From NCBI GenBank assembly GCA_964500415.1, contig CAZCOB010000001.1, positions 15,204 through 79,203 of the forward strand: a stretch of DNA of 64,000 bases, given 5' to 3'. The notes beneath the pieces are model-generated. The model was not told the DNA's origin and did no database searches. It saw nothing but the letters and a program-made list of their open reading frames with translations. Source of the DNA: an uncultured Dehalococcoidaceae bacterium. Its GTDB lineage: Bacteria > Chloroflexota > Dehalococcoidia > Dehalococcoidales > RBG-16-60-22. Of the stretch, positions 9,337 to 63,304 are shown piece by piece (positions within the stretch are counted from its first letter, which is position 1; the number at the start of each line of letters is the position of its first letter). A program made the translations under genes and the position numbers.

Positions 9337-9350
9337 CGTCTTTTACAGCC

Positions 9351-16097: not shown

Positions 16098-16187
16098 GGA
16101 GAGGTGTCCGAGTGGTTTATGGTGCCGCTCTCGAAAAGCGGTCTACGTGCAAGCGTAGCGTGGGTTCGAATCCCACCCTCTCCGCCA
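16098..16187 (+). tRNA. tRNA-Ser(CGA)
   Basis: GGAGAGG..CCTCTCCGCCA; anticodon arm CCGCT-CTCGAAA-AGCGG; long variable arm. Confidence 0.96.
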
Positions 16188-16232
16188 TAATGCTATCAAC
16201 CCGTTGTGAAAATCTGCTAAAATAAAGAGCGC

Positions 16233-16323
<91 letters not shown>

Positions 16324-16395
16324 CCTTTTACAAAGTTTTGGGGGGGGGGGAGGTAGCTCTCTCGCCATTGTTCAATATGAACGAGGTAGCGTCAG

Positions 16396-17451
16396 ATGAA
16401 AGTAATTGATTTGCGCAGCGACACCGTTACCCACCCCACCGCTGAAATGCGGAAGGCAATCTTTAAGGCGGAAGTCGGTGACGATGTTTACCGCGAGGAC
16501 CCCACCGTCAATCAGCTTGAGACAATGGCCGCTGAAAGAATGGGTAAAGAAGCCGCCCTCTTAACCACCTCCGGCACCCAGAGTAATCTTATCGCCGTAC
16601 TTACCCATACCGGTCATGGCAACGAGATAATATTGGGCGAAGATGCCCACATGTTGTGGTACGAAGTGGGTGGTGCTGCCGCCCTGGGCGGTGTGGTTAT
16701 GCGCACCCTGCCCAATGACAGTAACGGCCGTCTCGACCCCGATGACATCGAGCAGGCCATCCGGGGTAAATATATACACTACCCGGAGAGCACGCTCCTC
16801 TGTCTTGAGAATACGCATAATCGCTGCGGCGGGGCGGTTCTTTCCGCGGACTATACAGACGAAGTCTGTAATCTGGCCCATGCACACGACCTGAAGGTGC
16901 ATCTTGACGGTGCCCGTATTTTCAATGCCGCAGTTGCTCTCGGCGTACCGGCACGCGTACTTGTGAAAAACGTCGACTCGGTTTCGTTCTGCCTTTCTAA
17001 GGGACTCAGCGCACCGGTCGGGTCGCTGTTATGCGGAAACAGCGATTTTATCGAGCCAGCCCGCAAGTTCCGTAAGATGCTGGGCGGCGGTATGAGGCAG
17101 GCGGGGATTATCGCAGCCGCAGGCATTGTGGCACTCCGAACAATGATAGACCGCTTAAAGCAAGACCACGACAATGCGAGACGTCTGGCCCGGGGATTGG
17201 CAGGTATCGAAGGAATCACGCTGGCCCGGGACGATGTACCCACCAACATCGTTATGTTCGACCTCTCACCGGAGTTATCTTTTGGAGAGTTCGTTGAGGG
17301 TCTTGAAAAGGAAGGGGTAAAGGTGGGTTCGCGCGGTGGGAATTTATTTCGTGCGGTTACTCACCGGATGATTTCATCCTCAGACATTGACAAAGCGCTG
17401 ACACGCATCGAAGCAGTATGTCAGAGACTCAGCCGTCGAAGTCATAAATAG
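16396..17451 (+). CDS. ltaE: Low-specificity L-threonine aldolase
   Basis: DLRSDTVT, EDPTV, LENTHN, HLDGARIFNA, CLSKGLSAPVGS (PLP Lys). Confidence 0.95.
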   Translation: MKVIDLRSDTVTHPTAEMRKAIFKAEVGDDVYREDPTVNQLETMAAERMGKEAALLTTSGTQSNLIAVLTHTGHGNEIILGEDAHMLWYEVGGAAALGGVVMRTLPNDSNGRLDPDDIEQAIRGKYIHYPESTLLCLENTHNRCGGAVLSADYTDEVCNLAHAHDLKVHLDGARIFNAAVALGVPARVLVKNVDSVSFCLSKGLSAPVGSLLCGNSDFIEPARKFRKMLGGGMRQAGIIAAAGIVALRTMIDRLKQDHDNARRLARGLAGIEGITLARDDVPTNIVMFDLSPELSFGEFVEGLEKEGVKVGSRGGNLFRAVTHRMISSSDIDKALTRIEAVCQRLSRRSHK

Positions 17452-26929: not shown

Positions 26930-27009
26930 ATTCCATTATTCCTTGATAAGGCGTAAGGTGAAATAATATATAAGATTGTCAAATAATAATAAAAGATTTT
27001 TAGCAACCA

Positions 27010-27096
27010 GATATTGCTTTCAGAGTATATCATACAGCCATGTACTTCAAGATACTATTAGTCTCTATCTTTTGGACTACAAAGTATATCTTTTGG
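27010..27096 (-). promoter_or_regulatory. Regulon promoter block A, driving the dctP operon
   Basis: Gene-strand GTCCAAAAGATAGAGACTAATAGTATCTTGAAG-N15-TATACT; homologous to blocks B and C. Confidence 0.75.
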
Positions 27097-30661: not shown

Positions 30662-32371
30662 TTATTTACCCAATCCGGCACTATATACAATCTCGCCGCC
30701 AACTATCGTCATCAAGGTACGTATATCTTTTATTCTTTGCGGTTCGACGGTTAGAATATCTTCGTCTAAAACGCAGAAATCCGCCAGCTTTCCTTCTTCG
30801 ATAGAACCTTTGATGTCTTCTGCGTGGTCCTGCCAGGCGCCTCCCACCGTAAACATGCGGATGGCTTCTTCCACAGTTACGTGCCGGGCTGGCTCACCCT
30901 CCGTCGCATAATTTCGTAAAACGATGGACTGTATTGTCGCCTTCCAATCAGGATACGTAACCGGAGCGTCGGAACCACCGGCAATATGAACGCCGGCATC
31001 AAGCAATGTTCTTAAACACCCGTATTGTGCCGCTCTTTGCGTACCCACGGAATACGGCAGCAAATTCATAACGATATCAGCTAGAGCCGGCTGCACCGAA
31101 ACGCCAATGTTATACATATTCATAAGCTTCGCTCCCTCGGGTGATACATAATCTCCGTGAATAAGGTAATGCCTGAGCTTCTTCGGCTCTTCGCGTTCGG
31201 CTTTTACAAAACTGTCAATACACGCGTCGATAGCTCTATCTCCCGTAACGTGAACGCCTACCCGGAAACCAAGTTTATGACAATGGGCCACGATTTTCAT
31301 CAGTTCAGTGCAGCGTTCTTCGTCGGTTTCACCGGTGAAAATCATTTTACCGTTGCCACCATCTTCGTAATCTTTGTACATCCAGGCGGTCTTGTTCAGG
31401 GGTATACCATCGGCAAAGAGTTTGACTCCGGCCATTCTCACCCGCTCAGTGTTAAAATCGGAATTCGTCCCTAATTGAGATAGTCCATCATATAATGCTT
31501 GGGGGTCGTATGAGCCGTACGGTGTAAATAGCATCATGATGCCTACCCTTAGAGAAAGCCTGCCCGCATTATCAAGCTCTTTGTAAACTTCGATACACTC
31601 TTCATTCCACAACCCGCCCTGATATCCGGTGCCGCCCGGGCCAAGAGCCCCCTCGGTTATGCTCGTTATACCCAGCGAATTCAGTTCCTTCACAGCGGTA
31701 AGAAGTGCTTTTCGCTTTTGTTCTCGTGTCAAATCGGGAATAACGCTGGCGACCATCTCTCCCAGTTGCGCCCCCCTCAGCAAACCGGTAGGCTCTCCGT
31801 TTACCGGGTCTTTGACTATCTCACACCCCGGAAGCGCCGGTGTATCCCCGGTGATTCCAACCAGTTCCAGGGCCCGGGTATTAAGCCAGGTAACACTCTC
31901 TCCGATAGTAAAAGGAATCACACCAAGACAAACAGGATTGACAGGAGATACCAGGTCCAGGTCCCATCGTGTCGGGTACCTTGCGGGACTACTTTTACAT
32001 TCCTTCAGTGTACCCAGATTTAACCCTGACCCCCGGATCCATTTACCGGGTTTGGTCTTTTTAGCCTGCTTCCCAACTGCGTTCACAATATCGCGAATCG
32101 ACTTCATAGCAGGGTAACCGGCATCAAGTACCACAGGCGGTCTCGACCCCCAGTAGAGGGCTGCATGGATATGGGCGTCATTAATACCCGGAAGCATGGT
32201 TTTCCCTTCCAGGTCTATGATTTTTGTCTGCCTGTCACCCAATGCTTTAATATTATCGTTAGTGCCAACGGTTACTATTTTCCCGCCCTTTACTGCAACT
32301 GCCTGGGCGATGTAAAAATTCCCGTCAACTGTGATTATATTGCCATTAATAATTATCAAATCTGCTGACAT
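30662..32371 (-). CDS. YtcJ-like amidohydrolase, paralog 2
   Basis: PGINDAHIH, KLFADG, HVTG, RHYLIHGD, GSDAPV, GSIEEGKLAD. Confidence 0.9.
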   Translation of the reverse strand: MSADLIIINGNIITVDGNFYIAQAVAVKGGKIVTVGTNDNIKALGDRQTKIIDLEGKTMLPGINDAHIHAALYWGSRPPVVLDAGYPAMKSIRDIVNAVGKQAKKTKPGKWIRGSGLNLGTLKECKSSPARYPTRWDLDLVSPVNPVCLGVIPFTIGESVTWLNTRALELVGITGDTPALPGCEIVKDPVNGEPTGLLRGAQLGEMVASVIPDLTREQKRKALLTAVKELNSLGITSITEGALGPGGTGYQGGLWNEECIEVYKELDNAGRLSLRVGIMMLFTPYGSYDPQALYDGLSQLGTNSDFNTERVRMAGVKLFADGIPLNKTAWMYKDYEDGGNGKMIFTGETDEERCTELMKIVAHCHKLGFRVGVHVTGDRAIDACIDSFVKAEREEPKKLRHYLIHGDYVSPEGAKLMNMYNIGVSVQPALADIVMNLLPYSVGTQRAAQYGCLRTLLDAGVHIAGGSDAPVTYPDWKATIQSIVLRNYATEGEPARHVTVEEAIRMFTVGGAWQDHAEDIKGSIEEGKLADFCVLDEDILTVEPQRIKDIRTLMTIVGGEIVYSAGLGK

Positions 32372-32441
32372 TCGCTCTAAACCTGTCTTTGAGTTCCATT
32401 TTAACTATATAAATCTTTACGGCATCAAGACACAAAAAGCC

Positions 32442-32527
32442 GATATTGCTTTTAGGGTATATTAATCTATTATGCGGTTCAAGATACTAATAGACTCCAC
32501 CTTTCGGACAATAATATATATCTTCCG
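32442..32527 (-). promoter_or_regulatory. Regulon promoter block B, driving amidohydrolase-rid-C45
   Basis: 62/83 ungapped identity to 27010-27092 by manual count; -10 TATACC. Confidence 0.75.
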
Positions 32528-32754
32528 TTACAATCGAATATAAAACTCTGGAAATTAGATTAAAAATTAAATCGATCTCGTTGATTTTTTTGCGGGTGCA
32601 TACATTGGCTTTATAAGAAACATATCATTATCATCACTTTCCCAGCCGCCCCCCGATACCGCGATAACTGTATCATACCGGGATTATTGTCAATCTGTTG
32701 GGGTAATATTTAAAGCTTATACTTTCAATCCCATCAAAAAGTACGTACTGAGTT

Positions 32755-32819
32755 GTCCAAAAGATGGAGGCTATTGGTATCTTGAAGTATAAAATACGTT
32801 GATATAATCTGAGAGTAAT
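32755..32819 (+). promoter_or_regulatory. Regulon promoter block C, driving the ABC operon
   Basis: GTCCAAAAGATGGAGGCTATTGGTATCTTGAAG-N15-TATAAT-CTGAGAG; inverted copy of A and B. Confidence 0.75.
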
Positions 32820-32990: not shown

Positions 32991-34667
32991 GTGAAAAAGT
33001 ATTTTATAATTATTTGTGCGATAGTAATAATCGGCTCGCTGATACTTGGCGGTTGTGCCGAACCTGAACCAGAACCGGCACCAGCGCCGGCACCGGCACC
33101 GAGTCCAGAACCGGCACCGAAACCGAGTCCAGAACCGGCACCGGCACCGAGTCCAGAACCGGCACCGGCACCGAGTCCAGAACCGGCACCGGCACCTGAT
33201 CAGCCAAAGTACGGCGGCACGTGGACCATCATGTCGGACACAACTCCCACCAATGTTAACCCCCCGGCCGATGGAGGTTCTTTGTCGACCAGGCATCTTG
33301 TCCCCTGCCTGGAGCCATTACTCCGGCTAGGCGAAGGTGGAGTTCTCCAAGGGCATCTGGCGGAATCCTGGGACGTTTCTCCCGACGGTACCGCCATCAC
33401 CTTCCACCTGCGCCAGGGCATCAAGTTCCATGATGGCACCCCCTTTAATGCCGAGGCGGTCAAATATAACCTGGAAGCAACCGCGGCATCAGGCCTTTGG
33501 GGCGTTGGTATCCTGAACGTTGCCACATCTTATGACATCCTTGACGACTATACCATCCGGGCGAATCTTGACGGCTTCAATTACAGTTACATAACCGCGC
33601 TGGCCGGGCTTGCCGGCATGATCGCATCGCCAACAGCTTTACAGATACCCGCCGAGGACGAAGAACTCCCCGAGCTCCACATGGTAGGCACCGGGCCTTT
33701 CATCTTCGATAGCTTCAAGCGGGATGACTATGTCAAATATACGAAGAACCCGAACTACTGGCAGGAAGGTAAGCCCTACCTCGATGCGGTTGTCTTGAGG
33801 AACATCGCCGACCGAACCGTCGCGTTGATGGCTTTCCAGGCGGGCGAGGCGGACGAGTGGGCGACAGGACTCCAACTGGCTACGTCGAATATGCTGGAAG
33901 AGCAGGGCTACATTATTAGATCATATCCGCTGCGGTTCCATTTTGCCATGGTGTATGACAGCGCGGACCCGGCTTCTCCATTTGCCAACCAAAAAGTACG
34001 CGAAGCTGTTCACTATGGTGTGGACAAGCAGACTCTGGTTAATGGTATCGGCGGCGGCGCAAAGAGAGGATTTACCGCTCTGTATCAGATGGCTGAGCCA
34101 GGCGACCCGTGGTATTGCCCCGAACTGCCGATTCGCGCATACGATCTGGCAAAAGCCAAGCAGATGCTGGCTGACGCCGGTTACCCCGATGGGATAAAGA
34201 CAACGCTCATTTCGGACACCTTTGCGGAGACGAACTTCTTAGAGGCCCTGCAAATCGAGCTTAAAAAGATGGGCATCGATACCGAACTTGACATTGCGGA
34301 TTTTGGTAGGATAACCTCTCTAGAGATGGGCGGTTGGGAAGGTCTGTTGCATCCGGGTTTCCCGACCTCCGATACCATCTCGGGTCTTAACTCCCGCTGG
34401 GGCGACCCGTCCTTCTTCGTCAGTATGTACAAGCCGGCCGGATGGGATGACATGTGGGCTGCAATGATGGCCGAGGTTGACGATAACAAGCGTATAGAAA
34501 TGATGAAAGATATAGTTAGACTCGACTATAATGAGTGTTTAACCTTTACCTGGAGGGCGGATGCTCCTTTCGGAGTGAATGATGGAACCAGTCATGGTTT
34601 CGTACTTCACGCCGGTGGTGCCATGGACATCTGGTGGCCGGAATTCGTTTGGAAAGAACAAAAATAA
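32991..34667 (+). CDS. Family 5 (Opp/Dpp) ABC substrate-binding lipoprotein with a Pro-rich linker
   Basis: Lipobox LGGC; LAESWDVS..LRQGIKFHDGTPFNAEAVK, GTGPF; GGAGG RBS before GTG 32991. Confidence 0.93.
   Translation: MKKYFIIICAIVIIGSLILGGCAEPEPEPAPAPAPAPSPEPAPKPSPEPAPAPSPEPAPAPSPEPAPAPDQPKYGGTWTIMSDTTPTNVNPPADGGSLSTRHLVPCLEPLLRLGEGGVLQGHLAESWDVSPDGTAITFHLRQGIKFHDGTPFNAEAVKYNLEATAASGLWGVGILNVATSYDILDDYTIRANLDGFNYSYITALAGLAGMIASPTALQIPAEDEELPELHMVGTGPFIFDSFKRDDYVKYTKNPNYWQEGKPYLDAVVLRNIADRTVALMAFQAGEADEWATGLQLATSNMLEEQGYIIRSYPLRFHFAMVYDSADPASPFANQKVREAVHYGVDKQTLVNGIGGGAKRGFTALYQMAEPGDPWYCPELPIRAYDLAKAKQMLADAGYPDGIKTTLISDTFAETNFLEALQIELKKMGIDTELDIADFGRITSLEMGGWEGLLHPGFPTSDTISGLNSRWGDPSFFVSMYKPAGWDDMWAAMMAEVDDNKRIEMMKDIVRLDYNECLTFTWRADAPFGVNDGTSHGFVLHAGGAMDIWWPEFVWKEQK
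33093..33194 (+). repeat. Coding tandem repeat, 4 x 24 bp (PSPEPAP[A/K])
   Basis: CCGAGTCCAGAACCGGCA at 33099, 33123, 33147 and 33171. Confidence 0.95.
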
Positions 34668-50102: not shown

Positions 50103-52199
50103 ATGAGCAAGAAACTGGTTATCGTGGAATCGCCGGCTAAAGCCAAAACACTGGGTAAAATTCTCGGGAAGAACTACAAGCTCAAGGCTTCACTCGGACA
50201 TGTAAGGGACCTGCCCCGGGGCCAGATGGGTGTGGACATAGAGAACGGATTTATTCCCAAGTACGTGGTGCCTAGAGCCAAGACCAAACTGGTCAATGAG
50301 TTAAAGCAGGCGGCTAAAGACGCTTCAGCCATATATCTGGCTACCGACCCCGACCGCGAAGGAGAGGCCATTGCCTGGCATTTGGCGGAGGTAGCCAGGA
50401 TCGAAAAGCGAAATTACCATCGCGTCGTCTTCCATGAGATAACTGAAGACGCCGTGAAATCGGCTTTTCAGAATCCCCGCACCATCGATATGCAGCTGGT
50501 GAATGCCCAGCAAGCGCGGCGTATCCTGGACAGGCTCGTTGGCTATAAAATCAGCCCGCTGCTCTGGCAGAAGGTCAGAAAACGCCTCTCCGCCGGCAGG
50601 GTGCAATCGGTAGCGGTTAAAATAATCGTCGACCGCGAGCGTGAAATACGGGCCTTCGTTCCTGAGGAATACTGGACCGTCGAGGCTGAACTTGAAAAGA
50701 AAAAAGAAAAACCTTCCTTCCGGGCAACATTAATCGGCCTCATCGATGGTAAAAAGCTTGATATTCATGCGCAAGAAGAAGCCGATAAGGTTAAAAGCGT
50801 GCTGGAGCAGTCAGCCTATGACGTGCTCAAGGTAAGCACTAAGAAGGCGACTCGCCAGCCGGCCCCGCCTTTTACTACCAGCACTTTACAGCAGGAAGCC
50901 TGGCGTAAGCTCCGCTTCACTGCCAAGCAGACCATGGCTATCGCCCAGCAGCTATACGAAGGCCTGCCGGTTGGCAATGAAGGCAATGTCGGCCTTATCA
51001 CCTATATGCGTACCGATTCCACCCGTGTGGCCAGTTCTGCTATCGGCGAGACCGTGGCCTTTATCCGTGAAAAATACGGTGCCAAATTCCTGCCTCCCCG
51101 CCCCCGCGCCTTCACCACCCGCACCAGGGGGGCGCAGGAAGCGCACGAGGCTATTCGCCCTACCAGGGTCAGCCGTGAGCCTGACTTTATTAAAAAATAT
51201 CTCAATAACAACCAGTTCAGATTGTATGACCTTATCTGGAAGCGGATGGTTGCCAGCCAGATGGCGGCGGCTTTATTTAATAATACTAACGTCGATATCA
51301 AGGCCAAGGACCACCGCGACTATTTGCTGAGAACGGCCGTCTCGGTCAATACCTTCCCCGGTTTCATGAGCCTTTACAGCGAGAGCAGGGACGAGGTCGA
51401 GGAGGAAGGTAGTAAGAATGCGCTCCCCCGTCTGGCAAAAGGTGATGAGCTTAAGCTCCTGGGTATATTCCCTAAGCAGCGTTTTACCCAGCCGCCGCCC
51501 CGCTATACCGAGGCAACGCTGGTGAAAATTCTAGAGCAAAACGGCATCGGCCGGCCCAGCACCTATGCGCCGACCATCTCCACGATTCAGGACCGGGAGT
51601 ACGTCACCAGGGTCAAGGGGGTCTTTCAGCCCACGGAACTGGGCATGGTGGTCAACGATTTACTCGTCCAGCATTTCCCCGACATCATAAATGTGAAGTT
51701 TACCGCCGGTATGGAGAACGAACTGGATAATATCGCCAGTAAGGGGCGTGAATGGCCGAGCGTCGTACAGGACTTTCATACTCCGTTTGAAAAAGACCTG
51801 CAAAAGGCGCTCAAGACGGCGGAGAAGGTTAAGCTGGCGGACGAGGAAACCGGCGACTCCTGCCCCAAGTGCGGTAAACCGCTGGTGGTTAAAGCGGGGC
51901 GCTTCGGGAAGTTTATCGCCTGCAGCGGCTACCCCGAGTGCCGGTATACGCAGTCGTACCAGATTAAAGTCGGGGCGAAATGCCCCAAGTGCGGCAAAGA
52001 AATCGTACAGAGGGTAAGCAAGAAGAAGCGGACTTTCTATGGTTGCAGCGGCTATCCCGACTGCGATTTCATTACCAGTTTTAGGCCGTTGACCCAGCCC
52101 TGCCCGCGGTGCGGCGGCCTGCTTACCCAGCACGGCAAACAGGCCTGGTGTGTCAAGTGCGAGTATAAGGGGAAGGTGGAAGAGGAAAAGGCGGGATAA
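50103..52199 (+). CDS. topA: DNA topoisomerase I
   Basis: IVESPAKAKT, LATDPDREGE, SAGRVQS, ITYMRTDS, C-terminal Zn ribbons. Confidence 0.97.
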   Translation: MSKKLVIVESPAKAKTLGKILGKNYKLKASLGHVRDLPRGQMGVDIENGFIPKYVVPRAKTKLVNELKQAAKDASAIYLATDPDREGEAIAWHLAEVARIEKRNYHRVVFHEITEDAVKSAFQNPRTIDMQLVNAQQARRILDRLVGYKISPLLWQKVRKRLSAGRVQSVAVKIIVDREREIRAFVPEEYWTVEAELEKKKEKPSFRATLIGLIDGKKLDIHAQEEADKVKSVLEQSAYDVLKVSTKKATRQPAPPFTTSTLQQEAWRKLRFTAKQTMAIAQQLYEGLPVGNEGNVGLITYMRTDSTRVASSAIGETVAFIREKYGAKFLPPRPRAFTTRTRGAQEAHEAIRPTRVSREPDFIKKYLNNNQFRLYDLIWKRMVASQMAAALFNNTNVDIKAKDHRDYLLRTAVSVNTFPGFMSLYSESRDEVEEEGSKNALPRLAKGDELKLLGIFPKQRFTQPPPRYTEATLVKILEQNGIGRPSTYAPTISTIQDREYVTRVKGVFQPTELGMVVNDLLVQHFPDIINVKFTAGMENELDNIASKGREWPSVVQDFHTPFEKDLQKALKTAEKVKLADEETGDSCPKCGKPLVVKAGRFGKFIACSGYPECRYTQSYQIKVGAKCPKCGKEIVQRVSKKKRTFYGCSGYPDCDFITSFRPLTQPCPRCGGLLTQHGKQAWCVKCEYKGKVEEEKAG

Positions 52200-52356
52200 G
52201 CGGCGGGTGATGCGGGGGTAGCCTGGGTGGGTGAATGAAAATCCCCCTTTTATCCCCCTTTTCCAAAGGGGGAAACTGGGAAGGGAAACCTGCGGGATAA
52301 GCCGCAGATGATGCGAGGGCGGACTGGGTGGGAAAAGATAAGAAAAGAGGGGAAGT
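52191..52356 (+). repeat. Truncated composite repeat R1
   Basis: Two GGGATAAG..GGGTGGG units flanking an AAAATCCCCC..CCTTTTCCAAAGGGGG hairpin; supplies the topA stop codon. Confidence 0.75.
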
Positions 52357-52391: not shown

Positions 52392-53357
52392 ATGCAGCAG
52401 GTCTTCAGCAAGTACATCGCGTTTCTGGAGGCGGAGAAGAACGCCTCTGCGTATACGGTGAGGAACTATACCAACGACCTGATGGAGTTCTTCGGCTTCG
52501 TCAGGGACAAGGGAATAGAGTCGCTCAGGGACGTTAACAAGCAGACGCTGCGCGACTATATGGCGTACCTGATGGCGCAGGGTAAGGCCAAGTCCAGCAT
52601 CGCCCGGAAACTCTCGGCGATACGCTCTTTTTATCGTTACCTGATGCGGGAAGAAATGATAGCGGCCAGTCCCGCCGCGACGACTGTCTCACCAAAGCTG
52701 GACCGACGCCTGCCCTCTTTTCTGACCGTGGAGGAAGCCAAGCGCCTGGTGGAATCGCCCGACCTCTCCAAGGCGCCCGGTCAGCGCGACCGCGCCCTGC
52801 TGGAGCTTTTATACGCGTCCGGCCTGCGGGTAAGCGAGCTGGTGAACATAAACGTAGAGGAAGTGAACCTGGCGACAAATGAAATACGTGTCTGGGGCAA
52901 AGGCTCCAAGGAAAGAGTGGTGCTCATCGGCACTCCGGCGGCGCGGGCGTTAACGAGTTATATCGATAAAGGCAGGCGGGAACTGCTCGGAGGTAAAAAG
53001 AACAACGCCCTATTTTTGAATCGCTACGGCGAGCGCCTGCCGGCCCGGCGGGTACAGAAAATACTTCAAAAATATGCCCGGAATATCAATAAAAAAGTGC
53101 ACCCGCACGTACTGCGCCACACCTTCGCCACGCATCTCCTCGACGGCGGGGCGGACTTAAAGGTCGTCCAGGAGCTGCTGGGACACGCCGACCTACAGAG
53201 CACGCAGATTTACACGCACGTAACGCAGAGTCGGGCGCGCAAGATATACCTCGCCGCCCACCCGATGGCGCGGGAAAAGGGTCTGGATTCTGGCCTTCGC
53301 CAGAATGACATGACTGACCATCCGATGGCGCGGGGAGACATTGGTAAACATGAATAG
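52392..53357 (+). CDS. xerC: Tyrosine recombinase XerC/XerD
   Basis: SGLRVSEL, GKGSKER, HPHVLRHTFATHLL, LLGH, TQIYT; dprA-topA-xer synteny. Confidence 0.9.
   Translation: MQQVFSKYIAFLEAEKNASAYTVRNYTNDLMEFFGFVRDKGIESLRDVNKQTLRDYMAYLMAQGKAKSSIARKLSAIRSFYRYLMREEMIAASPAATTVSPKLDRRLPSFLTVEEAKRLVESPDLSKAPGQRDRALLELLYASGLRVSELVNINVEEVNLATNEIRVWGKGSKERVVLIGTPAARALTSYIDKGRRELLGGKKNNALFLNRYGERLPARRVQKILQKYARNINKKVHPHVLRHTFATHLLDGGADLKVVQELLGHADLQSTQIYTHVTQSRARKIYLAAHPMAREKGLDSGLRQNDMTDHPMARGDIGKHE
53258..53334 (+). repeat. REP-like hairpin flanked by a 17-bp direct repeat inside the xerC 3' end
   Basis: CTGGATTCTGGCCTTCGCCAGAATGAC at 53283-53309 between CCA[C/T]CCGATGGCGCGGG copies 60 bp apart. Confidence 0.85.
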
Positions 53358-56517: not shown

Positions 56518-56957
56518 TAGCCTCATCCCCTGTGTCCCCCTCAAGGGAAAATTCTAAGCACTAAACTGGCTGGTGAACCTATCCCCCTATGTCCCCCTTC
56601 CCTTGAGGATTATTGAAGGGAAGGGGGAGTAATTTGAAATAGGGGCTTCGCCCCTCTTAGACGCCCCGTTTGGGGGTGGGGGTAAAGACTGAGGGATAAG
56701 ACAATGAAAATCCCTCTTAGTCGCCCCTTTTTCAAATGGGGAAACTGTATATCACCCTCACCCTAGCCCTCTCCCATCAATGGAGAGGGGAATATAATAC
56801 GGGATAAGCCGAGGATGATACTGGGCGGCCTGGGTGGGAAGAGATAACAGGCGAGGGGTGGGGCGTATAGGTACGTTACCCACCCCACCACGAGATTCTT
56901 CGCTGCGCTCAGAATGACAGAGGGGAAGTACTGGATTCTGGCCTCCGCCAGAATGAC
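56518..56957 (+). repeat. Composite multi-hairpin repeat R3
   Basis: Ordered hairpin modules shared with R4; see findings. Confidence 0.8.
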
Positions 56958-56970
56958 AGTTATGAATAGC

Positions 56971-57606
56971 TTATTTCTTTGTTTTTTTGGGCTTCGCCTC
57001 TTTTTCATCGGCGGGTTTGGCCAATATCTCATCGATGATGCCGTATTCCGCTGCCTGCTCGGGGTTGAGATAGAAATCGCGGTCGGTGTCGTGGGTTATC
57101 TTGTCCAGAGGTTGGCCGGTATGCCTGACGAATATGTCCTTGATGATATCCTGCTGCCGCATGATTTCACGGGCGGCAATGACCATATCCGCCGCTTGCC
57201 CCTGGACACCGCTACTGGCCTGGTGCATGTGGATGGTGGCGTGGGGGAGGGCGTAACGCTTTCCCTCGGCTCCGGCACAAAGTAAAACAGTGGCCATGCT
57301 GGCTGACATGCCCACGCAGATGGTGGAAACACTGGGGCGGATGAGCTGCATGGTATCGTAGATGGCCAGTCCGGCGCTGATAACGCCGCCCGGACTCTGG
57401 ATATACATGCTGATGTCCTTATCCGGGTCTTCGCGTTCCAGATAGAGAAGCTGGGCAATCAGGGTATTGGCTACGGGGTCGGAAATGGGGGTGAAGAGCA
57501 TAACGATACGTTCTTTCAGGAGCAGGGAATATATATCCCAGAACCTTTCACCCCTCGGGCCGGTTTCGACCACACCGGGTATGATATTCGCTGGTAGATT
57601 ATTCAT
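56971..57606 (-). CDS. clpP: ATP-dependent Clp protease proteolytic subunit
   Basis: DIYSLLLKERI, SPGG, SASM (Ser), HQ, DRD. Confidence 0.96.
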   Translation of the reverse strand: MNNLPANIIPGVVETGPRGERFWDIYSLLLKERIVMLFTPISDPVANTLIAQLLYLEREDPDKDISMYIQSPGGVISAGLAIYDTMQLIRPSVSTICVGMSASMATVLLCAGAEGKRYALPHATIHMHQASSGVQGQAADMVIAAREIMRQQDIIKDIFVRHTGQPLDKITHDTDRDFYLNPEQAAEYGIIDEILAKPADEKEAKPKKTKK

Positions 57607-58943
57607 TTTTCTTCCTCCTTTTTGGTCTTCTTCTCCACCTTTGTCTTTTTCTTAGGGTCTCCGTTAGTTTTAGCTATATCGGTCATTCTTTCTATGGTCT
57701 TGCGGGTCTTTAACGACTGCTTAATCGATTCGCGGGTTTGAGGGGTGTCCAGCATTTTTCGAAGTTCATCTATTTTATCATCTCCCGCGCCCCGCGTCAT
57801 ATTACTAATTCCATTTTCAATGTCTGTCTCGGTGATTTCAATCTTCTCCGCCTCGGCGATTTTGCTCATTACCAGAGAGGCGGCTACGTTTTTCGTCGCT
57901 ACCGGGCGTAGTTCTTCACGGAGCTGCTCCGCCGTCTTATTGATACTTTGCAGGTACTCGTCCATACCCCGCCCCGTCATTTGCAGCTGCCTTACCTGCT
58001 CGTTAAGAATACGGTTAATTTCCATCTCCACCAGGACCGGCGGATATTCAACACTTGACCGCTCGACAGCGGTATTGATAACCTTTTCCTCAAATTCCAT
58101 CCTGGTGTTTTCTTCGGCCCTCAGCTGCAGGCTTTTGGCGATTTCCTCGCGGAGCGTATCAACCGTCTTAAAGTCGGGAGAGACCTGACCGGCGAACTCG
58201 TCGTTGAGTTCCGGGAGCTTCTCTTCCTTGATTTCAGTAAGTTTAACTTTAAAATGGCCTTCCTTACCGGCTACGTTGTTGTTGGGGTAGTCCCCGGGAA
58301 AGCTGAGGTTAAATTCCTTCTCCTCTTCATTCTTCATGCCGACTACCTGGTCGGAAAATCCAGGCGCGGGGGATATCAGTTCTTTCAGTACCTGAATCTG
58401 GGCGCCAACTTTCTGGACATAGGGCTTCTCATCGACCATGCCGTTAATATCGATAATAGCCATATCATTGTAGTCGAGCGCCCTGTCGACGGGTTCCCAG
58501 ATGGCGTGCTGGTGGCGCAGCTCTTCGAAAACAGCATTGACCTTCTCATCCGTTATGTCAACCGGGTCAGGCGTTATCCGGATATCCCGGTAGTCACCAA
58601 GCTCCACCGTGGGCGACAGAGGCACGACAGCCTTGAATATCAGGGGGTCGGTCTGGGTTATCTCCAGGTCCGGCTGGGCGAAGGGTTCTATTTCCTGCTC
58701 CTTGAGGGCCTGCTCGTAGGCCTGGGGCAGCAGGTGGTCGAGCGCCTCTTCGAGGAGCCTGGGTTTGCCCAGGTGGCGTTCCACTATCGCTCGCGGCGCT
58801 TTCCCCTTGCGGAATCCGGGGATGCTGGTTTTTTGCACCAGGTTGTGATAGGCATGCTGCAGGGATGATTCCATTTCGGCAGGCTCCATCTCGACGGTTA
58901 TATATGCCTGACGGTTCTCCTCTTTTTCTTTCGTAACTTTCAA
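57603..58943 (-). CDS. tig: Trigger factor
   Basis: IPGFRKGKAP, PGFSDQVVGM, FPGDY. Confidence 0.96.
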   Translation of the reverse strand: MKVTKEKEENRQAYITVEMEPAEMESSLQHAYHNLVQKTSIPGFRKGKAPRAIVERHLGKPRLLEEALDHLLPQAYEQALKEQEIEPFAQPDLEITQTDPLIFKAVVPLSPTVELGDYRDIRITPDPVDITDEKVNAVFEELRHQHAIWEPVDRALDYNDMAIIDINGMVDEKPYVQKVGAQIQVLKELISPAPGFSDQVVGMKNEEEKEFNLSFPGDYPNNNVAGKEGHFKVKLTEIKEEKLPELNDEFAGQVSPDFKTVDTLREEIAKSLQLRAEENTRMEFEEKVINTAVERSSVEYPPVLVEMEINRILNEQVRQLQMTGRGMDEYLQSINKTAEQLREELRPVATKNVAASLVMSKIAEAEKIEITETDIENGISNMTRGAGDDKIDELRKMLDTPQTRESIKQSLKTRKTIERMTDIAKTNGDPKKKTKVEKKTKKEEEK

Positions 58944-58959
58944 ATTCCCTCCCGATTAG

Positions 58960-60783
58960 CTAATCTTCACGCAGACGAATGTGCAATTCATCAAGCTGTT
59001 CTTCCGTGACGGGTGAAGGCGCGTTAAAGGTAAGGTCGGCGGCGCTCTGAGTCTTGGGGAAAGCGATTACCTCCCTGATGTTTTCCTCCCCGGTAAGATA
59101 CATGATAATACGGTCAATACCCGGAGCGATGCCACCGTGAGGGGGCGCACCATATTTAAAGGCCTCGAGCAAATGCCCGAAGCGTTCTTCAATGGCTTCA
59201 TCAGTGTAGCCAAGTATTTTAAATATTTTTCTTTGCAGGTCGCTCTTGTGAATCCTGATGCTGCCGCTACATAGTTCGCCCCCGTTACAGATAATATCGT
59301 AGCTCCTGGCCCTGACCTTCTCGGGGTCGGTATCCAGCAGCGGCATATCCTCTTCCCTGGGCATGGTAAAGGCATGATGCATGGCTTCCAGTCGCCCTGT
59401 CTGGCTATCCCTCTCGAACATAGGAAAATCAATGATAAAGCCGAAGGCAAAGACATCAGGGCTGGCCAGTCCCAGCCGGGAGCCAATCTCGCGGCGGAGT
59501 CCTCCAAGCACCGTACTGACCAGTTTGTTTTCCCCGGCCACAATCAGGAGCAGGTCGCCGATACCGGCTTCGAGTCGTCCGGCCATTGCTTTAATATCAT
59601 CCAGCGAGAGGAACTTGGCGGCAGTTGATTTCACCATTTCCGGGGTAAGTTCCGCCAGGCTATTACCGGCACCGCTCAGGGCGATGGAAACCAGGCCACC
59701 GGCGCCGAGTCCCCTGGCTATCTCGTTTAACTCCTCAAGCTGGCGGCGCGTATAACCGGCACAGCCAGCAGCACGGATACCTTTTACCCTGCCCTTGCCG
59801 GCGATAGCCGAGGTAAATATATCGAAGCCGGAATTCGCCACGATATCCGAAAGGTCTTTAATCTCCACGCCGAAACGGAGGTCGGGTTTATCCGAGCCAT
59901 AGCGTTCCATAGCGTCAGCATAACTGAGGCGGGGGAAAGGCTGTATCAACTGCTTTTCCGGCATGAGTGTCTTTATCATGGCGGTAAACAGTTCTTCGGT
60001 CAGACTGAAAATATCCTCTTCTTCAACGAAGCTCATCTCAACGTCAAGCTGGGTATGTTCCGGCTGTCGGTCGGCGCGGGTATCCTCGTCGCGGAAGCAG
60101 CGGGCAATCTGGTAGTATTTTTCGAAGCCGGCCACCATAAGTAGCTGCTTGAGCTGCTGGGGTGACTGCGGCAGGGCGTAAAAGTGGCCGGGGTAAACAC
60201 GGCTGGGCACCAGGTAATCGCGGGCTCCTTCCGGCGTGCTTTTGATAAGGATAGGCGTCTCTATCTCGACGAAACCTCTGGCATCCAGGAAATCGCGCAT
60301 GAACCTGATAACCCGGTGACGGAGGAGCAAGTTCTCTTTCATGCGGGGCCGGCGCAGGTCCAGGTAACGGTATTTCAGGCGCAGGTTTTCGTCTACCTCC
60401 ATTTCTTCGTTAATATAAAAGGGAGGGGTCTCGGAGGGGTTCAGTATCTCGGTGTCCTTAACGATTACCTCGATATCGCCGGTGGGGAGCCTGGGGTTTT
60501 CGGTACCCGCCGGACGCAGAGCTACCTCGCCTTTAATCCTCACGACGTACTCATTGCGCATTTTTTCGGCGGTTTTCAGACTGGCGGGTGATATTTCTGG
60601 ATTGAAAACCGTCTGGACGATGCCTTCCCTGTCCCTCAGGTCGATAAAGATAAGGCCGCCGTGGTCGCGCCTGCGGTTTATCCAGCCGGCCAGCGATACC
60701 TCGCTGCCGATGTGTTCTTTCCTTAATTCACCGCAGGAATGCGTCCTGAGCAAAGTTGCCTCCCCAATGATAGATGCCTTCAC
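58960..60783 (-). CDS. aspS: Aspartyl-tRNA synthetase, probably non-discriminating
   Basis: RTHSCGELR, RRRDHGG (His at the ND-diagnostic site), YQIARCFRDE, PPHGGIAPGIDR. Confidence 0.96.
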   Translation of the reverse strand: MKASIIGEATLLRTHSCGELRKEHIGSEVSLAGWINRRRDHGGLIFIDLRDREGIVQTVFNPEISPASLKTAEKMRNEYVVRIKGEVALRPAGTENPRLPTGDIEVIVKDTEILNPSETPPFYINEEMEVDENLRLKYRYLDLRRPRMKENLLLRHRVIRFMRDFLDARGFVEIETPILIKSTPEGARDYLVPSRVYPGHFYALPQSPQQLKQLLMVAGFEKYYQIARCFRDEDTRADRQPEHTQLDVEMSFVEEEDIFSLTEELFTAMIKTLMPEKQLIQPFPRLSYADAMERYGSDKPDLRFGVEIKDLSDIVANSGFDIFTSAIAGKGRVKGIRAAGCAGYTRRQLEELNEIARGLGAGGLVSIALSGAGNSLAELTPEMVKSTAAKFLSLDDIKAMAGRLEAGIGDLLLIVAGENKLVSTVLGGLRREIGSRLGLASPDVFAFGFIIDFPMFERDSQTGRLEAMHHAFTMPREEDMPLLDTDPEKVRARSYDIICNGGELCSGSIRIHKSDLQRKIFKILGYTDEAIEERFGHLLEAFKYGAPPHGGIAPGIDRIIMYLTGEENIREVIAFPKTQSAADLTFNAPSPVTEEQLDELHIRLRED

Positions 60784-60864
60784 TTTTGATTATAGCTTAT
60801 ACAGGTAGGCGCTTCAACAAAAATGCACCGACCGGCGATATCGGATAGTCTGGCTAGACGAGTA

Positions 60865-60893
60865 TTGACAAATAAATAATCCGGTGCTATCCT
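60865..60893 (+). promoter_or_regulatory. Sigma70-type promoter of the homocysteine operon
   Basis: TTGACA-N17-TATCCT with an extended TG. Confidence 0.7.
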
Positions 60894-61035
60894 GAGTATT
60901 GTTGATGAAAACAGTCAACTTTTATAGCGAGAATAATGCCAGTAAGTTAGGTACAGTTGTATTAGTACGGCGGCTCTGCTAGAATGTTATGTAATCCCGC
61001 TAATTATCATCAGGGGACAGGAGGGAAGCAGTCCA

Positions 61036-62244
61036 GTGGCCAAGACAATCGCGGAGATAAACGAAAAAATCAAAGAAGGCAAGGCCGTAGTCTTCAATGC
61101 GGAAGAGATTATCGACGTTGCCCGGGAGAAAGGCATCAAAAGGGCCGCCCAGGAAGTGGACGTGGTCACTACGGGGACTTTCGGGATTATGTGTTCCTCC
61201 GGGGCCTATTTCAACATCGGACACGCCAAACCGCGCTTTAAGCTGGGGGGCGGCCGGGCTTACCTGAACGACGTGCCGGCTTATACCGGACTGGCGGCAG
61301 CCGACCTGTTCCTGGGGGCTAACGCCCTGCCCGACGACGACCCGAGAAACAGGGTACATCCCGGTGAATTCACCTACGGCGGCGGGCATGTTATCGAAGA
61401 GCTGGTGGCGGGCAAGGACGTGCGGCTGGTGGCCACGGCCTTCGGCACGGACTGCTATCCACGCAAGAAGCTGGAGACGCTGCTGAACATCAAAGACCTT
61501 AACGAAGCGGTGCTCTTTAACATCAGGAATGCCTACCAGAATTACAACGTGGCGGTGAACTGTTCGGATAAGACAATCTATACATACATGGGGGTGCTCA
61601 AGGCGCAGTTGGGCAACGCCAACTATAGCTCGGCGGGGCAGCTTTCGCCACTGTTCAACGACCCCTATTACAAGACGATAGGAATCGGGACGAGGATATT
61701 CCTGGGCGGGGGCACCGGTTTCGTGGCCTGGCAGGGCACGCAGCACAATCCCGGCGTGCCCCGCACCGAGAAGGGCATTCCTAAAGAAGGCGCCGGGACG
61801 CTGGCGGTCATCGGCGACCTGAAGCAGATGAACGCGCGCTGGCTGGTAGGCACGAGCGTGCTCGGTTACGGGTGCAGCCTGACGGTCGGCATCGGGGTGC
61901 CAATTCCCGTGCTGTCGGAGGAAATCCTGGAGTATACCGCGGTAACCGACGCGGATATCCTGGCGCCGGTCGTCGATTATTCGGACGCCTTCCCTAATCT
62001 AAAACCGGACATCCTGGGCGAGGTCAGCTACGCCGAGCTTAAGAGCGGCAAGATAAAGGTCAAGGGGAAGGACGTGCCGACGGCTTCGCGCTCCAGCTAC
62101 CCGAGGGCGCTGGAGATAGCCAACCTGCTCAAGGAGTGGATACAATCGGGCAAATTTTTACTGACCGAGGCGGTGCAGCCGTTGCCCGGCGCGGAGTCCG
62201 CCGTAAAAGTGAAGCCGCTCAACGAGCGGCCCATCGAATATTAA
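61036..62244 (+). CDS. Homocysteine biosynthesis protein (DUF39, MA1821 family)
   Basis: KTIAEINEKI, VDVVTTGTFG, RNAYQNY, YSSAGQLSPL, GTQH, GDLKQM. Confidence 0.9.
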   Translation: MAKTIAEINEKIKEGKAVVFNAEEIIDVAREKGIKRAAQEVDVVTTGTFGIMCSSGAYFNIGHAKPRFKLGGGRAYLNDVPAYTGLAAADLFLGANALPDDDPRNRVHPGEFTYGGGHVIEELVAGKDVRLVATAFGTDCYPRKKLETLLNIKDLNEAVLFNIRNAYQNYNVAVNCSDKTIYTYMGVLKAQLGNANYSSAGQLSPLFNDPYYKTIGIGTRIFLGGGTGFVAWQGTQHNPGVPRTEKGIPKEGAGTLAVIGDLKQMNARWLVGTSVLGYGCSLTVGIGVPIPVLSEEILEYTAVTDADILAPVVDYSDAFPNLKPDILGEVSYAELKSGKIKVKGKDVPTASRSSYPRALEIANLLKEWIQSGKFLLTEAVQPLPGAESAVKVKPLNERPIEY

Positions 62245-62330
62245 CTTCAGCAGAAGCGAGATAATATAAATATAGAGAATCTGAGGTTATATTGCCTTAG
62301 CTATAGTGAGCAGGGGAAGAGGTGTAAGCA

Positions 62331-62741
62331 ATGGCAGTTACGAAAAGAATCGTTTTACGCTTTCCCAGGCGACTGGTGGAGCGACCGATAATATACCGTC
62401 TGGTCAAGGACTACGACCTTGAGTTCAATATTCTCAAGGCTTCTATAACCCCCGAGCAGGAAGGTCTGCTGGTGCTGGAGCTTAAGGGGAACCAGAAGGA
62501 ATACGATAAAGGCATCGATTTCCTGATCAAGGCCGGCGTGCAGATACAGTCGCTGAGCCAGGACGTGACGCGTAACGAGGAGAGGTGCACCAGTTGCGGC
62601 GCCTGCGTCACCGTCTGCCCTACCGGCGCTTTCCGGGTAGACCCGAAGACGCGGGAAGTGCTGTTCGATAATACGAAGTGCATTGCCTGCGGGCTCTGCA
62701 TCCCGGCTTGCCCGCCGCGGGCGATGGAAGTGCATTTCTAG
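62331..62741 (+). CDS. NIL-domain ferredoxin (MA1822-like)
   Basis: FNILKASI NIL domain; CTSCGACVTVC and CIACGLCIPAC. Confidence 0.9.
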   Translation: MAVTKRIVLRFPRRLVERPIIYRLVKDYDLEFNILKASITPEQEGLLVLELKGNQKEYDKGIDFLIKAGVQIQSLSQDVTRNEERCTSCGACVTVCPTGAFRVDPKTREVLFDNTKCIACGLCIPACPPRAMEVHF

Positions 62742-62770
62742 CTGCTTTGATATTGAGTGGCGTTATTTAA

Positions 62771-63297
62771 AAACCTTACCCCCTGTGTCCCCCTCTCCTT
62801 ACGAGGCAGGGTGAAGGAGAGGGTGAATGGATTTGAGAGGGGGCTTCGCCCCCTCTCGCTGTGCACTCCCCTGTAAGGGGTGGGGAAACGCCAGGTATCA
62901 AGGAACAAGTATCAAGGAAGGGATAAAATTCCTAAGCTATCAAAATCCTCCTTAATCCCTCCTTCGGCAGGCTCATGACAGGCTCTTTTTTCAAAGGAGG
63001 AAACTGGGGACGAAAATCTACCTTAATCCCTCCTTACGAAGGAGGGAGACAGATTGGGTTAAGGCATTGATATAAGGGTTTGTGCAAACAACCTCTCCCT
63101 TCGGTAAAGGGAGAGCGAGAGGGATTTTGGGGCGGGGGTATATTAGCGGGATAAGCAGAGGATGGTGCGAGGGCGGTCAGGGCGGGAAAAGATAACATAG
63201 ACGGGGGGTGGGGTCTGTATGTTGCCTGCCCCACCCCGAGATTCTTCCCCTTCAGCCGAAGGGTCAGAATGACAGAGGGAATGTTCCTCAGAATGAC
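62771..63297 (+). repeat. Composite multi-hairpin repeat R4
   Basis: Same module order as R3, with nested extra modules. Confidence 0.8.
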
Positions 63298-63304
63298 GGA
63301 ATGA

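Follow-up and report, generated by a model that had tools for sequence, protein, structure and literature searches.

Gene context and composition of the arrays

The window analyzed here is a 64,000-nucleotide stretch of DNA from an uncultured Dehalococcoidaceae bacterium of the phylum Chloroflexota (contig CAZCOB010000001.1 of assembly GCA_964500415.1, positions 15,204 to 79,203), which originates from a salt-marsh metagenome. Three of its gene junctions contain arrays of small hairpin repeats, referred to here as R2, R3, and R4. The genes run dprA, topA, (R2), xerC, pepP, efp, PHP, a 277-amino-acid formyltransferase-like gene, (R3), clpP, tig, and aspS (all three on the minus strand), a DUF39-like gene, a NIL/ferredoxin gene, (R4), and a UPF0280-like gene. 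The order of genes around the arrays is kept in many metagenomic relatives.

We found that R3 (56519-56959) and R4 (62772-63299) are collinear mosaics of small non-coding hairpin repeats; in a MAFFT alignment they are collinear with a mean column identity of 71% and large gaps of module size. A repeat finder and BLAST of the arrays against the window located a third, shorter and collinear array, R2 (52191-52342), at the topA/xerC junction, as well as a solo hairpin of the last module type within the 3' end of xerC (53283-53310). R2, R3, R4, and the solo hairpin are all placed on the plus strand by these searches, while the pattern of the Ssn-related motif (SRM) in the last module reads on the minus strand. 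The sequence CAGAATGAC occurs 5 times versus 0.39 in shuffles, and CCCCTRTGTCCCCCT (with up to 2 mismatches) 3 times versus 0.31. The other ten long intergenic regions of the window contain no such arrays.

R3, R4, and R2 are built from five or more repeat families inserted within each other, as mosaics of the kind known as bacterial interspersed mosaic elements (BIMEs) and neisserial intergenic mosaic elements (NIMEs). Their modules comprise parts of a miniature inverted-repeat transposable element (MITE), a 48-nt unit, hairpins labeled D, a BoxC/PIT/TMECO-type motif, G-boxes with a hairpin, and SRM hairpins, arranged as follows.

52191-52231, plus strand: R2, first copy (a) of the 48-nt unit, whose 3' end gives way to the next module (nhmmer E 3e-4)
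52234-52278, plus strand: R2, D hairpin AAAATCC..CCCCCTTTT..AAGGGGGAAACTG, with the layout pyrimidine tract, pyrimidine arm, loop, purine arm (repeat family D13)
52292-52342, plus strand: R2, 48-nt unit, full copy b (nhmmer E 5e-14)
53283-53310, minus strand: solo SRM hairpin TGTCATTCTGGCGAAGGCCAGAATCCAG in the 3' end of xerC, in frame, matching the degenerate SRM pattern (repeat family D17)
56519-56548, plus strand: R3, solitary MITE left end AGCCTCATCCCCTGTGTCCCCCTC.., truncated relative to R4
56576-56686, plus strand: R3, MITE copy, aligned with the complete MITEs L156:1790-1925 and L144:2226-2376; its parts in order are the left inverted end AACCTATCCCCC, hairpin A CCCCCTTCCCTT..AAGGGAAGGGGG, hairpin B AGGGGCTTCGCCCCT, a short third hairpin, and the G-rich right end GGGGGTGGGGGT
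56693-56700: R3, GGGATAAG, a fragment of the 48-nt unit preceding the D hairpin
56703-56747, plus strand: R3, D hairpin (repeat family D13)
56753-56790, minus strand: R3, intrastrand-triplex motif of BoxC/PIT/TMECO type, CCCTCTCCA TTGAT GGGAGAGGG CTA GGGTGAGGG
56799-56848, plus strand: R3, 48-nt unit ACGGGATAAGCCGAGGATGATACTGGGCGGCCTGGGTGGGAAGAGATAAC (nhmmer E 5e-14)
56855-56886, plus strand: R3, G-box plus hairpin GGGGTGGGG..CCCACCCC
56891-56923, minus strand: R3, SRM-like hairpin a (GAGATTCTTCGCTGCGCTCAGAATGACAGAG on the plus strand), with the layout of the NTS motif of Neisseria, failing the degenerate pattern
56931-56959, minus strand: R3, SRM hairpin b (CTGGATTCTGGCCTCCGCCAGAATGACAG on the plus strand), 12 nt from the clpP stop codon, orthologous to the hairpin beside the ssnA-like gene of locus L119
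62772-62886, plus strand: R4, MITE part with left end AACCTTACCCCC, hairpin A (62790-62824), hairpin B GGGGGCTTCGCCCCC (62839-62853), and third hairpin CTCCCC..GGGGTGGGG
62941-63006, plus strand: R4, D hairpin 1, with about 24 nt nested near 62961-62984 (repeat family D20)
63012-63050, plus strand: R4, D hairpin 2 (repeat family D20)
63092-63138, plus strand: R4, hairpin CCTCTCCCTTCGGTAAAGGGAGAG followed by GAGAGGGATTTTGGGGCGGGGG
63146-63196, plus strand: R4, 48-nt unit (nhmmer E 2e-12)
63203-63237, plus strand: R4, G-box plus hairpin GGGGGGTGGGG..CCCCACCCC
63238-63299, minus strand: R4, SRM-like hairpin (63238-63278) whose loop holds a small nested hairpin, followed by an incomplete second copy (63287-63299); the following gene begins at 63305

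An earlier note on this DNA had listed the modules of R3 and R4 and their order, and we found every one of them at its place and in the same order. The two extra modules that it described as nested in hairpins of R4 (62963 and 63248) appear in the alignment as R4-specific insertions of approximately 24 nt near 62961-62984 and of 9 nt near 63248-63256. Relative to R4, R3 lacks approximately 135 nt after its first left end and has gained a fresh MITE copy. The junction sequence GGGATAAAATTCCTAAGC..AAAATCC is common to R3 and R4 and lies outside every module consensus.

Orthologous junctions and effects on genes

Other genomes were compared as 8-kb pieces, which carry L numbers here. A scan of one genome per species, with the start of the 48-nt unit as query, gave at least 118 loci, and true copies of the unit occupy at least 25 loci from at least 13 Dehalococcoidia species represented by metagenome-assembled genomes (MAGs). 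The remaining matches, including those outside Dehalococcoidia, were rejected as chance matches in coding regions such as uvrA. An unbiased set of relatives, assembled by ClpP, was the source of complete MITEs. The arrays have no similarity to phages, and similarity to plasmids was limited to BoxC and SRM pieces.

All three window arrays are insertions. The topA-xerC junction measures approximately 190 nt in the window versus 8-52 nt in eight relatives. The convergent spacer beside clpP is 494 nt long versus approximately 20 nt in L121, a relative with 88% ClpP identity; in L164, L165, and L168 this spacer holds a plain hairpin terminator, and in L166 the terminator plus an inserted MITE. The NIL/ferredoxin gene is followed by approximately 565 nt in the window versus approximately 8 nt to the next gene in L144 and L155. 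The insertions have altered the genes beside them: the stop codon of topA comes from a 48-nt unit, xerC has gained 20 codons, and two gene pairs, almost adjoining in relatives, now have inserts of 190 and 570 nt between them. R2 and R4 are probably transcribed as parts of operons.

The backbone is a MITE

The first three modules are a MITE, a non-autonomous element with inverted ends. Complete small elements of 125-200 bp are present in the ClpP-based relatives with the layout TA-ACCTATCCCCC-TGA-(CCCCCTTCCCTT..AAGGGAAGGGGG)-(AGAGAGGGGC..GCCCCTCTCT)-(TCCCCCTCTCC..GGAGAGGGGGA)-TAAAGGGGGTGAGGT-TA, where parentheses enclose the hairpins. The inverted ends are approximately 22 bp long, with (A)TTTAG(C/T)AACCT(C/A)(A/T)CCCCC at the left and the complement at the right in L156, L144, L136, and L073, and the end pair reads ..TTTAGCAACCTATCCCCC / GGGGGTGAGGTTACTAAA.. 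in short. Read from the sequences, the ends have a BoxC-like design consisting of a pyrimidine tract, a spacer of 3-5 nt, a pyrimidine arm, a loop, and a purine arm.

Filled and empty sites can be compared directly in the tig-clpP spacer, which is MITE-filled in L156 and L136 and empty in L134, L145, L158, and L128. In L156 the element (9176-9400) is bounded by a perfect 12-bp direct repeat, TTCAAATATGAG; this sequence is present once in the empty spacer of L145, and with 1-2 differences in L134, L158, and L128. A second element, L144:2226-2400, is flanked by an 11-13-bp duplication with one mismatch (TCAGATGAAAAG / TCAGATGAAGAG), and its inverted end (GTTTAGC) gives the upstream gene its stop codon. 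IS4-type transposition typically produces target duplications of this length. We also considered the TA dinucleotide as the target duplication, as in IS630-like elements, and dropped it, as the 11-13-bp duplications lie outside the TA.

The window copies at 56576-56686 and 62772-62886 align with complete MITEs across the left end and the first two hairpins. Their left ends are clear; what remains of the third hairpin and right end is the shorter ..CGCCCC..GGGGGTGGGGGT, and the right ends (GGGGGTGGGGGT) are degenerate. In the first hairpin, the compensated stems and divergent loops that had been proposed for the array were borne out: among 22 copies with hairpin arms curated by hand, 88% of cells are paired, 7 of 14 pairs have changed on both sides, and there are 40 compensated cells versus 16.5 +/- 3.0 in shuffles, with 0 of 500 shuffles reaching 40. 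The MITEs of L156, L144, L136, and L166 do not contain the 48-nt unit.

The 48-nt unit

The 48-nt unit (GGGATAAGC..GATAAC) is purine-rich, non-palindromic, and the best-conserved part of the arrays. Among the matches listed, which cover at least 13 species MAGs, its copies are 85-95% identical to each other and true copies occur only in Dehalococcoidia. We infer that it is a putative protein-recognition sequence. A coding function is excluded by 1-2-nt indels between copies. RNAalifold returned 0 conserved pairs across 31 copies of the unit, and a candidate stem (AAGCCGCC/GGCGGCTT) was rejected, being paired in 62.3% of cells versus 62.1% in shuffles and showing no covariation.

The unit also occurs outside the composites. 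Solitary copies are always flanked by G-boxes in the arrangement GGGGTGGGG, approximately 10 nt, unit, approximately 5 nt, GGGGGGTGGGG, and often lie right at gene ends. In four independent cases the TAA within GGGATAAGC is the stop codon of the upstream gene, in the same frame each time (..(T/A)G*): topA of the window (52197-52199), the topA orthologue of L019 (L019:5175-5185), L050:2771, and L076:3460. The unit after topA in L019 is arranged as in R2. One copy is nested in reverse orientation (L063:7242). We found no copy-specific target duplication around the unit, in that the two flanks of one copy resemble each other no more than flanks taken from different copies do (p = 0.35); the G-richness of the flanks is a general trait and not a copy-specific duplication.

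SRM hairpins and a linked GIY-YIG gene

The NTS motif of Neisseria, with the consensus CGTCATTCCCGCGMAVGCGGGAATCYRG, is bound and cut, only as single-stranded DNA (ssDNA), by the 94-amino-acid GIY-YIG nuclease SsnA; NTS/SsnA modulates transformation in Neisseria, and ssnA genes with NTS-type motifs on their flanks are found in many phyla (Chenal et al. 2025, PMC11893778). The GATTC..GAATGAC hairpins of the window are SRM hairpins of NTS/dRS3 type, as judged from their sequence, and are predicted to be bound by SsnA. We used the degenerate SRM pattern HGTCWYN(0-2)YYVSBRHN(0-5)WNVSBRGN(0-2)RNCYNB, which the xerC hairpin at 53283-53310 (minus strand) matches versus 0.34 matches expected in shuffles. 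The other four of the five window SRM hairpins fail this pattern. Of these, 56931-56959 is one loop base off the matching xerC copy, and the GAGATTCTTCGC..CAGAATGAC type is a more distant variant. Read as its reverse complement, the L089 hairpin departs from the Neisseria NTS consensus at a single base.

The earlier note had suggested looking for linked GIY-YIG genes, and this proved productive: the hairpins of the last module correspond to the published recognition motif of the GIY-YIG nuclease Ssn, and a gene of this type is present at the R3 site of one close relative. This relative, L119, is the nearest by ClpP (90% identity) and carries a single-domain GIY-YIG open reading frame (ORF) of 95 amino acids (L119:1167-1566; PF01541, E 6.5e-16), with the UPF0213 protein 1ZG2 as its best match in the PDB. 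It lies in the spacer after clpP, directly beside the hairpin orthologous to 56931-56959. The ORF begins right after the hairpin GTCATTCTGGCGTAGGCCAGAATCC and has no obvious ATG, and the contig ends at its 3' end. The window contains no GIY-YIG gene.

Within xerC, an in-frame insert of approximately 60 nt (20 codons) consists of the SRM hairpin and a 16-nt direct duplication, CA(C/T)CCGATGGCGCGGG, at 53259-53274 and 53319-53334. The encoded C-terminus reads AHPMAREKG-LDSGLRQNDMTD-HPMARGD, and orthologues without the insert have HPMA(Q/R) once. Such tolerance of an SRM hairpin within coding sequence is rare, and it gives the sole hint in our data of how the target is handled on SRM insertion. 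The xerC-pepP junction of relatives shows other module combinations, in L141 (approximately 4700-4890) and L144 (approximately 17300-17390), with a GTCACCCTGAGCGCAGCGAAGGGTC hairpin that is another SRM-like variant. After xerC, L141 has a GGGGTGG..CCACCCC hairpin and then GAGAT.., the same order as in R3 and R4.

The BoxC motif and D hairpins

The R3 segment at 56755-56789 (minus strand) fits CCCTCNCCC N3-6 GGGNGAGGG N3 GGGNGAGGG with one substitution, and the BoxC consensus at up to 2 substitutions had no match in 30 shuffles. This segment is a BoxC/PIT/TMECO motif, for which triplex formation is predicted from the consensus. We found 40-nt copies of it in 3806 of 5426 complete Escherichia coli genomes, for example in the phnE-phnD spacer, and among the matches listed these copies are 88.4-92.5% identical to the window motif. 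The D hairpins (AAAATCC..GAAAC) share the three-block layout of BoxC, as read from the sequences. Elements of this family in E. coli show no sign of mobility, had no promoter or terminator activity in earlier work, and mark loci of raised genetic variability (Holder et al. 2015, PMC4666352).

The phnE-phnD spacer of E. coli (L199:2440-2545, L200, and L201) is a repeat hotspot in which the occupants differ by strain: two inverted BoxC motifs in strain 7/2, a single CCCTCTCCC..GGGAGAGGG hairpin in TUM20902, and repetitive extragenic palindromes (REPs) in K-12. The polymorphism is ambiguous on BoxC mobility, and no target duplication is visible in these three strains.

Module order, separate families, and block copying

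The same modules recur in the same order beside unrelated genes: CCTCACCCCCTGTGTCCCCC plus a hairpin, a AGAGGGGC..GCCCCTCT hairpin, a short hairpin ending in GGGGTGGG, the 48-nt unit, a G-box, and often a GGATTC..GAATGAC hairpin. Counting within 450 nt of a 48-nt unit, among the loci listed, we found the first module upstream and on the same strand in 14 of 14 cases and the second in 14 of 17, two of the exceptions being a palindrome that matches both strands. SRM hairpins lie on the strand of the unit in 11 of 11 cases (7 downstream and 4 upstream). The conserved module order described for R3 and R4 is thus strongly non-random in at least 13 other genomes. A compact version of approximately 200 nt (e.g., L059:3420-3600 and L087:1056-1260) keeps near-constant spacing in at least 12 loci. 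Neighboring copies within single loci tend to share orientation (13 of 17 pairs, a hand count that is suggestive only). Agreement of orientation with local GC skew (15 of 38) is uninformative on 8-kb pieces.

We next compared the abundance of the modules in salt-marsh contigs mapped on R3, where the single-copy baseline is approximately 15 and depth sums the whole community rather than one genome. Relative to this baseline, the MITE copy reaches 12-39x (the first hairpins 10-23x and the second hairpin 30-39x), the D hairpin 1x (at 90% identity or more), the BoxC motif (56753-56790) 60-100x, and the 48-nt unit 6-10x. The hairpin at 56891-56923 reaches 570-1050x (56881-56922, in two salt-marsh runs), and that at 56931-56959 5-13x. 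Contigs with unrelated continuations start or end at the module borders 56752/56753, 56789, 56890, and 56923-56924. Because depth differs approximately 1000-fold between them, the modules are separate families.

A 156-nt block of R4, comprising D hairpin 2, the linker, the following hairpin, the G-box, and the 48-nt unit, matches L116, which lies beside other genes in a different genome, at 85% identity. Since this block is shared across contexts, our data suggest that multi-module blocks are copied as units.

Interpretation of the arrays

The earlier note had named a non-autonomous mobile element and an ordered BIME-like array as separate options. Our data indicate that these are one and the same: the modules are ordered, orthologous sites are empty at all three junctions, and relatives have inverted ends with 11-13-bp duplications. 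We consider it probable (approximately 0.72) that R2, R3, and R4 are intergenic mosaics in which a MITE backbone bears an attached or nested 48-nt unit, D hairpin, BoxC motif, GGGGTGGGG..CCCCACCCC hairpin, and one or two SRM hairpins at the 3' side, and that the composite was copied as a unit and moved in trans.

The arrays would then be piles of small hairpin repeats inserted into three originally tiny gene junctions. The MITE with its 48-nt unit, often with an SRM hairpin, and larger sub-blocks would be copied as a unit within and between Dehalococcoidia genomes, which would give rise to the conserved order. R3 and R4 would be a pair of diverged copies, carrying further nested insertions and a single internal deletion. 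The modules may have been moved in trans, probably as folded ssDNA, by enzymes encoded elsewhere: the SRM hairpins may depend on an SsnA-type GIY-YIG ssDNA nuclease encoded elsewhere in the genome, and the MITE may be moved by a transposase whose duplications resemble those of IS4. The 48-nt unit, fused to the right end of the MITE, would travel along, and later insertions would land in or beside existing hairpins.

Several observations weigh against composite movement in trans. Many composites have a degenerate right inverted end. Neither the window copies nor the composites with the 48-nt unit were found to be flanked by a target duplication of at least 8 nt, L087 being the one doubtful exception; because of this, composite movement is inferred only from shared order and junctions. 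As the earlier note had stated, the window contains no transposase or cognate nuclease, and the 31 loci examined around copies share no recurrent ORF family, only housekeeping synteny. For SRM hairpins, the published work demonstrates cleavage and not transposition (PMC11893778). The arrays may also have a role at the transcript level.

An alternative is that no composite ever moved and that each hairpin family inserts alone, targeting a sequence made by another, so that the arrays are a pure hotspot pile-up like that of BIMEs; for instance, insertion of the 48-nt unit would always be at the G-rich right end of the MITE, and that of SRM hairpins beside G-boxes. Much of what we found fits such a pile-up: solitary 48-nt units exist, always between G-boxes and frequently at gene ends, one unit is nested in reverse (L063:7242), an SRM hairpin stands alone in xerC, copy numbers differ approximately 1000-fold, composites lack target duplications, and some MITEs lack the 48-nt unit. 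However, long blocks including linkers are shared across genomes and contexts (156 nt at 85% between R4 and L116), the idiosyncratic junction GGGATAAAATTCCTAAGC..AAAATCC is common to R3 and R4, and the compact 200-nt version keeps near-constant spacing in at least 12 loci. We regard independent insertion as unlikely.

Another reading, compatible with a mobile origin, is that the host keeps the arrays for a function, a proposal already made for REP/BIME and for the NTS clusters of Neisseria. Candidates are protection of mRNA 3' ends or operon decoupling, pausing of replication or recombination by triplex or hairpin DNA, and SsnA cleavage marks in ssDNA uptake. The arrays do lie at gene 3' ends and in two former operon junctions. 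The 85-95% conservation of a non-coding, unstructured 48-nt unit across at least 13 species suggests constraint, and precedents exist in the modulation of Neisseria transformation by NTS/SsnA (PMC11893778) and the higher variability of TMECO loci (PMC4666352). Yet the same junctions work without an array in most relatives, we found no terminator-like features, and PIT/BoxC elements lack promoter or terminator activity (PMC4666352). Maintenance by the host for such a function appears quite improbable.

The earlier note had further proposed a large structured RNA, meaning that the composite would be one non-coding RNA gene or cis-regulatory RNA with the hairpins as helices and the 48-nt unit as its core. 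R3 folds much better than shuffles (z = -6.2), the first hairpin has compensatory changes, RNAalifold allows base pairing between the 5' CCTCACCCCC and the GGG..GGGTGGG segment of the 48-nt unit, and R2 and R4 lie between co-oriented genes and are probably co-transcribed. We nevertheless consider this very improbable: R4 folds no better than shuffles (z = -1.5); at the gathering threshold Rfam finds only three tRNAs in the window, with chance-level matches in R3 and R4 at E <= 10 (RAGATH-10, 19 bits versus a cutoff of 41) and no covariance-model match to large structured RNAs (Rfam families such as ROOL, GOLLD, OLE, and HEARO); the 48-nt core has zero consensus pairs and a candidate stem without covariation; the long-range pairs are invariant, hence uninformative; stems are conserved and loops hypervariable (4-40 nt), the opposite of typical RNA genes; orientation relative to genes is random (opposite to the upstream gene in 18 cases and the same in 12, and matching the downstream gene in 19 and opposing it in 16); promoter and terminator signals and T-runs are absent, counts being at shuffle level; G-T and A-C mispairs are balanced (3 versus 6); and a single RNA gene would not show such different module copy numbers. 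Covariation is confined to local hairpins such as the first, and is lacking in the 48-nt core and the overall structure. The balance of evidence favors DNA-level repeats rather than RNA.

Implications

Composite copying of a MITE-based mosaic invites a wider conjecture, which we offer as tentative and rather doubtful. BoxC/PIT-type motifs, seen for 30 years as immobile and function-less across phyla, might be the working ends of a transposable family that makes 11-13-bp target duplications; the highly conserved 48-nt unit might serve an as yet undiscovered ssDNA enzyme as the handle by which it acts in trans, in the way that NTS serves SsnA; and the arrays might record a multi-family hairpin mobilome in which composites move as units.

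The arrays link two widespread, poorly understood families, BoxC and Ssn hairpins, in one locus type of an uncultured Dehalococcoidia lineage. The clean filled and empty pairs with target duplications, found for an element with BoxC-like ends, bear on how BoxC-type motifs spread. As a lineage-specific sequence conserved without coding or folding potential, the 48-nt unit is a concrete candidate binding site. In addition, the arrays rewrite gene ends, split operon junctions, and break metagenome assemblies, and recognizing them improves the annotation of Dehalococcoidia MAGs.

Other repeats of the window

The window contains further repeats. An AT-rich repeat of 44-88 nt (TACTTCAAGATACTATTAGTCTC..) is present at 27005-27092, 32437-32524, and 32746-32789, twice direct and once inverted, in low-GC spacers on both sides of the stretch from 27 to 33 kb, and has no relation to the hairpin arrays. 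The segments 20886-22442 and 30662-32218, approximately 9.77 kb apart, are 72-76% identical over several segments and look like a diverged gene or cluster duplication. A 12-nt tandem repeat (GCACCGGCACCG-like, at least 12 units) of high GC content at 33055-33196 probably codes for a Gly/Ala/Pro/Ser-rich segment on one strand. Two tRNA genes at 16098-16350, 135 nt apart, have identical 3' halves, and a run of 11 G follows the second.

Comparison with known systems

BoxC triplex motifs and Ssn-nuclease hairpins are already known families, and mosaics of extragenic hairpins have known counterparts in BIMEs and NIMEs. Apparently undescribed are the Dehalococcoidia MITE with its triplex-motif ends, the 48-nt unit, and the fixed combination of both with SRM hairpins; a full-text literature search on miniature inverted-repeat elements in Dehalococcoidia returned no paper.

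Like BIMEs, which are REP arrays mobilized by RAYT/TnpA-REP, the arrays are ordered short extragenic palindromes at gene ends and in operons, non-coding, with conserved stems and variable loops. Unlike BIMEs, the modules have neither a GTAG-type REP head nor alternating inverted REP pairs, and the backbone has inverted ends and target duplications, which are absent from REPs. No recurrent ORF resembling a RAYT or Y1 transposase was found near the copies at the 31 loci.

Modular MITE-like repeats include the pneumococcal BOX elements (boxA-boxB(n)-boxC), the Correia elements of Neisseria, and derivatives of the IS4 group such as MIC231. Such repeats are non-coding, 100-300 bp in size, and bounded by inverted repeats, have optional internal units, insert at gene ends, and can supply stop codons or signals, and the elements described here resemble them in this. 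The elements here differ in sequence, which shows no similarity to those families, in their triplex-motif-like ends, and in the nesting of foreign repeat families, and no parent insertion sequence was identified near the copies at the 31 loci.

As in BoxC/PIT/TMECO elements of E. coli, the window motif is intergenic without strand bias relative to genes, and its three-block layout recurs in the MITE ends and D hairpins. Here, however, BoxC-like blocks end an element with target duplications and empty sites, in contrast to the E. coli motifs without a sign of mobility, and the blocks of the MITE ends measure 10-12 nt versus 9 nt.

In comparison to NIMEs, in which dRS3/NTS hairpins are mixed with RS units, and to the SRM-SsnA system, the host belongs to the Chloroflexota (Dehalococcoidia), a phylum absent from the main text of PMC11893778. 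The window stems are mostly variant (ATTCTGGC and ATTCTTCGC), the partner repeats (MITE, 48-nt unit, and D) are unrelated to the RS units of Neisseria, and the window is without ssnA. Nevertheless, the last module has the NTS layout of GTCATT, stem, loop, stem, and AATCC, it forms mosaics with other short repeats, and a hairpin-flanked single-domain GIY-YIG gene occupies the orthologous site of a close relative.

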